Below, piece after piece: positions 1,621 to 2,793 of a DNA stretch of 11,464 nt. Position numbers and translations under genes: made by a program. Within the stretch, counting starts at the first letter, position 1, and each line of letters opens with the position of its first letter. The notes under the pieces are model-generated. The model made no database searches, had not been told where the DNA came from, and was given only the letters and a program-made list of their open reading frames with translations. Origin of the DNA: a virus (taxonomy: Duplodnaviria > Heunggongvirae > Uroviricota > Caudoviricetes); the IMG/VR virus record IMGVR_UViG_2663763286_000004, positions 1 through 11,464 of that record, one strand, 5' to 3'.

Positions 1621-2136
1621 ATGGCGTTAACACACCGCGAACTCTGTCAGATTGCGTACAAGTTCCTTAAGCGCAACGGGTTCAAGGTTTGTTTTCATGA
1701 CCGCTTTATAGCTGTAACCAGTACCGGAGAACAGCCAGATGCTATGGGGTTCAGAAATTCAGCATCATGCCTGATAGAGGCGAAGTGTTCTCGTGCTGAC
1801 TTGTTGGCAGATAGAAAAAAGCGTTTCCGTAAAAATCCCTCACTTGGCATGGGCGACTGGCGATTCTTTATTAGTGAGCCGGGAATTATTTCAGTTGAGG
1901 ATTTACCACCTGGCTGGGGATTACTTCACGTTGTTAACGGAAGAGTACGGAAAGTACATGGGTGGCCCAAGGGTAATTGCTGTTGGGGTAATCCTGACGA
2001 TAAGCCATTTACTGGAAATAAGCAGGTTGAATGCGATTACATGTTGTCTGCATTAAGGCGCATGGAGTTGAGAGGGCACCTTAATGAAATATATGACGGT
2101 GTAATTGTTAATAAGAAAGAAGGAAACGCGGCATGA
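1621..2136 (+). CDS. PD-(D/E)xK nuclease-fold protein (171 aa), possibly MmcB-like
   Basis: Strong RBS AAAGGAGAG 6 nt upstream of ATG 1621 (preferred over the track start 1549). Motif order E7 ... hydrophobic strand FIAVTS - PD40 ... LIE53-A-K55 fits the PD-(D/E)xK catalytic core; SRADL and GWGLL segments recall MmcB-family proteins. Confidence 0.6.
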
Positions 2137-2477
2137 CCACTATTACCAGAGAGCAGTTAATAGCTCACGCAGAGGAGACTATTGAAGCACAGAGACTGTG
2201 TATACCGGGCACAATCGACCATGACATCATCCGCACATATAAGATGGATATTGCTGTTCTGGAAATCGCACTGGCATCGCTGGCAGCAGAGCCAGCCGGT
2301 AAATTGCATGAATACAAACCAGTGGGACATCAGCGTCTGGTCGACGAGTTAACCATGCTGGTAAAGCAGTTAACCTGGCAACTGAGGAAAACGAAGCCGG
2401 ACTGTAAATTGCCGGGTAAGGCGATGGACTACCTGAAGCGAAACGGACTGATAAGCGCAGAGGATGTTTTACGATGA
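2133..2477 (+). CDS. Hypothetical protein (114 aa), translationally coupled to the nuclease gene
   Basis: ATGA start/stop overlap with upstream gene; predicted helical, no recognised motif. Confidence 0.55.
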
Positions 2478-2557
2478 CCTGGCCTGAAGCATTCACCACG
2501 GTAGGAATTGTGATGGCGGCAGCACTGGGTTTGTATTCAATTTGTCGCTGGTGGTAA
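2474..2557 (+). CDS. Possible 27-aa single-pass membrane peptide
   Basis: [31 protein letters not shown] overlap with upstream gene; stop 2 nt before next ATG. Very short, so low confidence. Confidence 0.3.
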
Positions 2558-2559
2558 CG

Positions 2560-2793
2560 ATGGGAAAAATAACTTTTGTAGTCGAATTTGAGGATGGTAA
2601 AGAGCCACCTGTTAGCGCCAATCTTGATGTTGCCGGTGGCAGGCTTGTTTCGGTTCTATTTGGTGACTACCGAGATGATTTCTTCCAACCAGAAGAAGTT
2701 GATGTAGTGCGAGAAGCATTAAACGAGCTAAGTGTTGATAACGATGATGCTCATGCGGAAATCATCAAAAAAATGGAACTGCTAACTCACTAA
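2560..2793 (+). CDS. Small strongly acidic protein (77 aa), unknown function
   Basis: ATG at 2560 preferred over TTG 2542 of the track; 18 Asp/Glu versus 7 Lys/Arg. Confidence 0.55.
   Translation: MGKITFVVEFEDGKEPPVSANLDVAGGRLVSVLFGDYRDDFFQPEEVDVVREALNELSVDNDDAHAEIIKKMELLTH

Follow-up and report, generated by a model that had tools for sequence, protein, structure and literature searches.

An unnamed phage family of PD-(D/E)xK nuclease-fold proteins related to MmcB and Hjc, found in a chimeric gene array of a P1-like phage-plasmid

Does a run of four small open reading frames (ORFs) in a phage genome encode a nuclease together with its partners, or a nuclease next to genes that have nothing to do with it? 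The question is raised by positions 1621-2793 of the IMG/VR virus record IMGVR_UViG_2663763286_000004 (Caudoviricetes), of which the first 11,464 nucleotides (nt), referred to below as the window, were analyzed. The window is part of a P1-like phage-plasmid; Escherichia coli plasmids of about 98 kb cover 83-88% of it at 95-98% identity, and the genes in question lie within a variable accessory region of this element. The initial annotation described them as a translationally coupled operon led by a PD-(D/E)xK nuclease-fold protein of 171 amino acids (aa), and considered for it a restriction-like defence, an anti-defence function, or an MmcB-like accessory role in recombination and repair. Here, the fold, the relatives, the genomic contexts and the neighbours of this protein are examined. 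On balance, we favour the reading that the gene at 1621-2136 specifies a stand-alone, probably metal-dependent PD-(D/E)xK endonuclease, which is exchanged as an independent mosaic module and has a role in the processing of branched or damaged DNA. The four-gene array is a rare recombinant chimera.

The nuclease gene extends on the + strand from an ATG at 1621 to 2136, and its product is basic (isoelectric point, pI, 9.3). A strong ribosome-binding site, the Shine-Dalgarno sequence AAGGAG at 1609-1614, is located 6 nt before the ATG, and the start at 1621 matches the N-termini of homologues. The ORF coordinates and sizes in the segment, this binding site, and the positions of the motif residues (E7, P39-D40 and E53-A-K55) all agreed with the initial annotation; the codons of D40, E53 and K55 were read at 1738-1740, 1777-1779 and 1783-1785, respectively. 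The bare pattern E...PD...[DE]xK arises in about 5% of shuffles of the 171-aa protein, so that the motif by itself is only suggestive and the claim of a nuclease has to be carried by homology and structure.

Searches with the single sequence of the 171-aa protein against Pfam, NCBIfam, PADLOC and the PDB returned nothing, and its kinship became visible only through profiles and structure. The AlphaFold2 (AF2) model, built from 27 homologues, had a predicted local distance difference test score (pLDDT) of 79.1 and a predicted template modelling score (pTM) of 0.75. Its core elements follow the order a1-b1-b2-b3-a2-b4, which is the canonical alpha-beta-beta-beta-alpha-beta arrangement of the PD-(D/E)xK superfamily. 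D40 is placed immediately before b2 (residues 41-45), and E53 and K55 at the end of b3 (residues 48-54), so both the core fold and the D...(D/E)xK residues on strands 2 and 3 that define the superfamily are present. A Foldseek comparison with viral protein models gave several matches named 'MmcB-like DNA repair protein'. In PHROGs, the protein matched phrog_9263 and phrog_631, both without assigned function, and more weakly phrog_2776 and phrog_5429 ('DNA repair protein').

The relationship to MmcB-like proteins was also recovered by sequence profiles. The nearest relative is the MmcB-like family (PF06319, formerly DUF1052/COG5321), the solved member of which is SPO1766 of Ruegeria (Silicibacter) pomeroyi (PDB 3dnx); the archaeal Holliday-junction resolvases (Hjc) also belong to the nearest relatives. 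A profile of 40 distant members of the window family retrieved 3dnx by sequence with an E-value of 2.9e-5, and alignment of the family with 3dnx by HHalign reached a probability of 97.7% (E=1.4e-12). In this alignment D40 is paired with an aspartate, E53xK55 with E-x-K, the segment SRADLLAD with SRADFQAD, and GWGLL with SGLL. The aligned fragment of 3dnx itself scored 111 bits on PF06319 ('DNA repair protein MmcB-like'), and a reverse search of PHROGs with the same fragment led back to phrog_2776, phrog_5429 and phrog_631. In a survey of PD-(D/E)xK proteins, 3dnx is filed under DUF1052/PF06319/COG5321 (PMC3424549), and DUF1052 had earlier been tied to archaeal junction resolvases (PMC1189080). 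When the 40 distant members were compared with Pfam, sub-threshold matches were obtained to Hjc for 17 of them and to MmcB-like for 10 (best 2.9e-4), which fits this older link between DUF1052 and resolvases (PMC1189080).

Residue conservation was counted over 148 family representatives from several bacterial phyla and phage types, with denominators that vary by site. D40 is kept in 143 of 144 sequences and E53 and K55 in 145 of 146 each, and these three residues are invariant or nearly so in both family alignments (A1 and the divergent A2). E37 (143/144), an acidic residue, D or E, at position 27 (137/138), D60 (146/146), D64 (147/148), K67 (147/148), R70 (147/147), G78 (148/148), R81 (147/148) and H5 (127/131) are similarly well kept. 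The catalytic core proposed in the initial annotation, E...PD...ExK, therefore holds for D40, E53 and K55 and fails for E7, which is a glutamate in just 63 of 131 sequences. Neither a non-nuclease fold nor a lack of conservation of the motif residues, the two outcomes that had been named as fatal to the nuclease proposal, was found, and the description as a PD-(D/E)xK nuclease-fold protein is borne out by the AF2 core and the family homology; the protein is very likely a genuine nuclease.

Catalytic activity, substrate and biological role are what we infer for this protein. D40, where strand 2 begins, and E53-x-K55, where strand 3 ends, would form the active site, and additional metal ligands would likely be supplied by the conserved acids E37 and position 27 rather than by E7. 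DNA may be contacted by the conserved basic residues R58, K67, R70, R81, R146 and R147. The enzyme is predicted to act in phage replication, recombination or repair by cutting branched or damaged DNA, a role that is suggested by its accessory DNA-metabolism neighbourhoods together with its kinship to MmcB and Hjc.

The family was compared with the closest known systems. The MmcB-like family takes its name from MmcB of Caulobacter crescentus, an SOS-induced PD-(D/E)XK endonuclease that guards this bacterium against mitomycin C and cisplatin (PMC9578287). Both families consist of single-domain proteins of about 150-170 aa with the PD-(D/E)xK endonuclease fold (PMC3424549), and they share the motif string D...E-x-K-S-R-x-D-F-x-x-D...R-(F/Y)-(F/Y)...G-L-L. 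Two features set the window protein apart from MmcB-like proteins: residues 65-78 form an additional basic insert, RKKxFRxxPxxGMG, and the C-terminus has a conserved helix, KPFxxNKQxE...ALRR. MmcB-like genes are chromosomal and occur mostly in alpha-proteobacteria, with MmcB itself under SOS regulation, whereas the carriers of the window family are phages, prophages and plasmids from many groups of bacteria. With Hjc (PF01870) and YraN/UPF0102 it shares a minimal PD-(D/E)xK core in which D...ExK occupies the same strands; the likeness to Hjc extends to sub-threshold profile matches to PDB 1hh1 and 4tkk (E about 0.3), and that to YraN consists of weak NCBIfam matches below threshold. The helix-1 glutamate of Hjc has no conserved counterpart in the window family. 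The gathering threshold of PF06319 (22 bits) was not reached, although homology by profile and structure is present, and that of PF01870 (21.1 bits) was not reached either, the relatives peaking at about 17-18 bits. The initial suggestion of an MmcB-like protein is thus upheld as homology to 3dnx but not as membership of the Pfam family. An unnamed sister family within the MmcB/Hjc branch of the PD-(D/E)xK superfamily is the most fitting description.

This family is large. An exhaustive hidden Markov model search yielded 3,295 clusters (at 50% identity) with E ≤ 1e-3, and 2,416 with E ≤ 1e-10. It has no curated model and no name, and a literature search found no paper on such a phage nuclease family, returning one review and the PD-(D/E)xK surveys. 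Among long members, domain fusions that could have been informative (TniB, dATP/dGTP pyrophosphohydrolase and DUF551, once each) were set aside as likely gene-call fusions with neighbouring genes. The nuclease gene is carried by 1,648 of 5,426 complete E. coli genomes (about 30%), in 1,954 chromosomal and 410 plasmid places, and tblastn detected the family in 643 phage records, including Stx-converting, Klebsiella and Vibrio phages and virulent Ackermannviridae. Its carriers are both temperate and virulent phages, the latter including phages of Salmonella, Klebsiella and Vibrio, as well as P1-like plasmids.

The contexts of the gene in phages point mostly to DNA metabolism. In the Salmonella phage Kuttervirus SP1 (locus L119, 3980-4597) and in Vibrio phage D509 (L125, 3480-4163) the homologue lies directly 5' of a DNA primase gene, and in Vibrio phage SUMAE (L128, 3495-4097) the primase is two genes downstream. 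The homologues of these large virulent phages are about 200-230 aa long, with a shared N-terminal core and a different C-terminal part, and their placement near primase hints at a replication-linked role. In Vibrio phage SSP002 DNA polymerase I and two helicases precede the homologue, in Vibrio phage X29 it is located amid exonucleases, RusA, Dam and SSB, and in Vibrio phage D273 it is preceded by a replication initiator, by NinB and by a methyltransferase. The Stx-type phage Ss-VASD carries it in the early-left operon, downstream of exo/ssb and before xis, and a lambdoid E. coli prophage has it between P and Q, in its nin region. In these respects the gene resembles the nin and ea/b genes of lambdoid phages (RusA, NinG/Rap, NinB/Orf, Ead/Ea22, DUF551/EaA), which occupy the same neighbourhoods, are exchanged gene by gene as a mosaic, and consist of short ORFs that overlap and share one long early transcript. 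To RusA and NinG it has no kinship of sequence or fold; they are functional neighbours, not homologues.

Two further observations were made on these loci. The methyltransferase gene of D273 is directly upstream of the homologue (L124, 2891-4082), and in Pseudomonas phage Dolphis (L123, 2254-4133) a methyltransferase gene is likewise directly upstream and overlaps the homologue, which is mis-annotated there as 'adenylosuccinate synthase'. In RefSeq, PGAP calls the intact 171-codon ORF a 179-bp 'frameshifted' pseudogene, both in the P1-like plasmid locus L001 (4506-5021, NZ_AP042501.1) and in the lambdoid locus L003 (6001-6516, NZ_AP042583.1). Both ORFs translate without interruption, and NZ_AP042501.1 is additionally annotated with a separate 110-aa protein; such pseudogene calls seem to be an artefact that recurs systematically in the annotation of the family.

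If the nuclease worked together with a partner, a constant neighbour would be expected, and none was found, either by clustering of the proteins up to four genes away in 29 diverse genomes or by a Pfam census of those up to two genes away in 30 diverse bacterial loci. The census covered 119 neighbour proteins, with Ead/Ea22 (6), DNA methylases (5) and DUF551 (3) the most frequent, followed by NinG (2), DUF968 (2), RusA, RdgC and others. The window's own neighbours did not occur within four genes of the nuclease in any of the 29 genomes.

The three ORFs downstream of the nuclease gene were then compared with those of its closest relatives. A 114-aa ORF (2133-2477, + strand; phrog_660, function unassigned) begins within an ATGA overlap at 2133-2136, and a hydrophobic ORF of 27 aa (2474-2557; grand average of hydropathy, GRAVY, 0.89) within a second one at 2474-2477. 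The 77-aa ORF (2560-2793; phrog_3876) is acidic, with a pI of 4.26 and 18 D+E against 7 K+R, and its start also matches the N-termini of homologues. The hydrophobic and acidic characters had been recognized correctly. The overlapping or abutting junctions agree with the description, two of them being ATGA and the third TAA-CG-ATG at 2555-2562, with a gap of 2 nt between stop and start. In 83 loci whose nuclease gene is 98-100% identical to that of the window, the 114-aa gene follows the nuclease gene in about 10, and about 16 contain the 77-aa gene, at a varying distance and always right behind the 27-aa ORF. The gene order of the window was seen in one of the 83 (L053, identical throughout), and the four-gene set in one of 80 viral loci and in none of the 5,426 complete E. 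coli genomes, not one of which spans ≥80% of 1621-2793.

A three-way DNA comparison revealed how this order arose. As far as about 2486, the window has the same sequence as L003, a locus of the lambdoid type (nuclease, 114-aa and 27-aa genes), and from about 2480 it is identical to L001, of the P1-like plasmid type (27-aa and 77-aa genes and those downstream), which places a crossover in the opening ~13 nt of the 27-aa ORF (2474-2486), with L003-like sequence to the left and L001-like sequence to the right. The segment from 2155 to about 2480 is the part unlike other P1-like plasmids. The four-gene array is thus chimeric, and the absence of conserved neighbours, the absence of this order from E. 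coli genomes and the recombinant junction together lead to the conclusion that the 114-, 27- and 77-aa ORFs are chance neighbours of the nuclease gene and not its partners. They would be unrelated passengers brought in by recombination and co-translated from the same message. A functional four-gene operon, as first envisaged, is not supported by these data, the downstream neighbours being different in nearly all relatives.

The passengers have histories of their own. The 114-aa protein is assembled from segments common to modular phage proteins of the Ea22 type. The 77-aa protein, which matched no known fold, was found only in Enterobacteriaceae and goes with the 27-aa ORF and the downstream genes rather than with the nuclease. 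The 27-codon ORF stays open and hydrophobic in at least four flank contexts, with the consensus M-x-W-P-E-A-F-T-x-V-G...Y-S-I-C-R-W, while two copies are defective; its product is probably a real, small single-pass membrane peptide. It occurs behind at least three different upstream genes (L001 6162, L003 6854, L078 5162, L079 4854), is followed by several different sequences, and is unannotated in the records examined. This mini-ORF seems to double as a recombination linker between gene modules.

Upstream, the nuclease gene does not lead an operon, as had been supposed, but stands within a longer chain. An unbroken + strand series of overlapping or abutting ORFs extends from 597 past 2793 to at least 4308, and overlap-type stop/start junctions also join all the upstream ORFs from 597 on. 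The chain opens with an Ead/Ea22-like ORF (597-1085; Pfam Ead_Ea22, 7.6e-33), followed by three tiny, very basic ORFs of 58, 58 and 62 aa (1085-1261, 1258-1434 and 1431-1619; pI 11.3-12) that overlap head to tail, and the nuclease gene starts 1 nt after the stop codon of the last (1617-1619). From 300 to 3700 the + strand showed no sigma-70-like promoter, nor was any terminator convincing; a single transcript would cover the chain. The products of 1258-1434 and 1431-1619 are paralogues (37% identity, E 7e-8), both beginning with MKNRKAK, and none of the three tiny ORFs matched Pfam. The ORFs of 597-1619 are also annotated by RefSeq in a related plasmid, the three tiny ones as hypothetical proteins, and many loci of the P1-like and Stx-phage kinds contain these three together with the nuclease gene. 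Start/stop overlaps in lambdoid accessory regions are accordingly not evidence of functional partnership.

Several points weigh against an endonuclease for branched or damaged DNA. The 171-aa protein had no Pfam or NCBIfam match even at E ≤ 1, its link to MmcB is remote (24% identity), the remaining four of the five AF2 models were less confident (56-69), and every database name for the family is 'hypothetical protein'. The proposed substrate is a guess, that of MmcB being itself undefined. Many lambdoid and Vibrio phages with the nuclease gene also have RusA or NinG, so it is not simply 'the' junction resolvase of its carriers. Finally, several homologues adjoin DNA methyltransferases, an arrangement compatible with a restriction-type role.

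The last point bears on the proposal that the protein serves in defence, as a restriction-like or superinfection-exclusion nuclease against incoming DNA, with a nearby methyltransferase shielding the carrier's own DNA in some genomes. The methyltransferases immediately upstream in Dolphis and D273, the methylase domains of 5 of the 119 neighbour proteins in the 30 loci, and the location of the gene in variable accessory prophage regions are in line with it. On the other hand, eight proteins spanning 597-4305 gave no match in PADLOC-DB v2 (E ≤ 0.1), no methyltransferase is encoded in the window, its ORF chain included, and most loci have none within two genes. Homologues within the replication modules of virulent phages (Kuttervirus, Mardecavirus) are hard to reconcile with lysogen defence, the protein is a bare core of 160-170 aa without a recognition domain, and its kinship to repair and resolvase families is much closer. 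A defence role, one of the options in the initial annotation, is accordingly considered unlikely, and the gene is an ordinary phage DNA-metabolism gene rather than a new defence system. The opposite function, counter-defence or host takeover, would have the enzyme degrade host DNA or an immune nucleic acid, with the acidic 77-aa protein (pI 4.26) as a second factor, for example a DNA mimic. The gene does occur in early and accessory regions where anti-defence genes cluster, and the family is widespread across virulent and temperate phages. But no similarity to known anti-defence proteins was found, the 77-aa gene and the nuclease gene are not together outside P1-like plasmids, and nothing points to a specific immune target, so that this suggestion gained no support and is regarded as improbable for this protein.

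A toxin-antitoxin pair has also been weighed, in which the basic nuclease would be a toxin restrained by the 77-aa or the 114-aa product, at a ratio set by translational coupling. The ATGA overlaps, the basic/acidic pairing (pI 9.3 against 4.3) and the presence nearby of genuine toxin-antitoxin modules such as phd/doc could be read in this way. Toxin-antitoxin partners must co-occur, however, and in the 29 diverse genomes neither the 114-aa nor the 77-aa protein was encountered up to four genes away from the nuclease; the order is as rare as described above, the junction is a recent crossover, and most family members stand alone. The lack of co-occurrence essentially refutes this pair, and its likelihood is negligible. 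A different objection concerns catalysis itself: the nuclease scaffold might be kept in a silent form that acts only as a DNA-binding or structural factor, and the helix-1 glutamate used by many PD-(D/E)xK enzymes, E7 here, is indeed not conserved. The near-invariance of D40, E53, K55, E37 and the acid at position 27 over the 148 representatives is what would be expected of an active site, which makes a silent protein a poor explanation.

Beyond the preferred reading of a stand-alone endonuclease, two more specific and more speculative readings may be entertained, with little confidence. The family could be a widespread replication-coupled, structure-specific phage endonuclease distinct from RusA, NinG and endonuclease VII, or a counter-defence nuclease against a DNA-based immune component. 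The former would fit the position directly 5' of primase in Ackermannviridae-type and Vibrio phages, and beside helicase and polymerase genes in others, and stalled or branched intermediates or crosslinks would then be its targets. Either, if true, would add a new functional class to the MmcB/Hjc branch. Independently of this, a gene family carried by about 30% of complete E. coli genomes is very common and yet unannotated in databases. Its placement beside MmcB and Hjc makes a checkable biochemical prediction, provides the basis for a curated model, and offers access from the phage side to the little-understood MmcB branch of repair nucleases.

The remainder of the window agrees with its origin. 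Its right half codes for HumD, Phd, Doc, a DUF968 protein, Lpa, PacA/PacB and an Ash-like protein. At the left edge (1-327, minus strand) lies the OrfA transposase gene of an IS3-family insertion sequence (Pfam HTH_Tnp_1, 1.4e-12), which we take to resemble IS629/IS1203. Homology between the window and related P1-like plasmids begins at 380 and not earlier, and the insertion sequence appears to have severed the + strand ORF chain, as well as the gene that ends at 600 (ORF 289-600), from their upstream part and promoter. Two RNAs scored above the Rfam gathering score, an isrK or isrK-like RNA at 10694-10771 (60.8 bits) and a C4 antisense RNA at 10796-10883 (75.9 bits). These RNAs beside the Ash-family ORF are the immI-type immunity region expected in a P1-like element.

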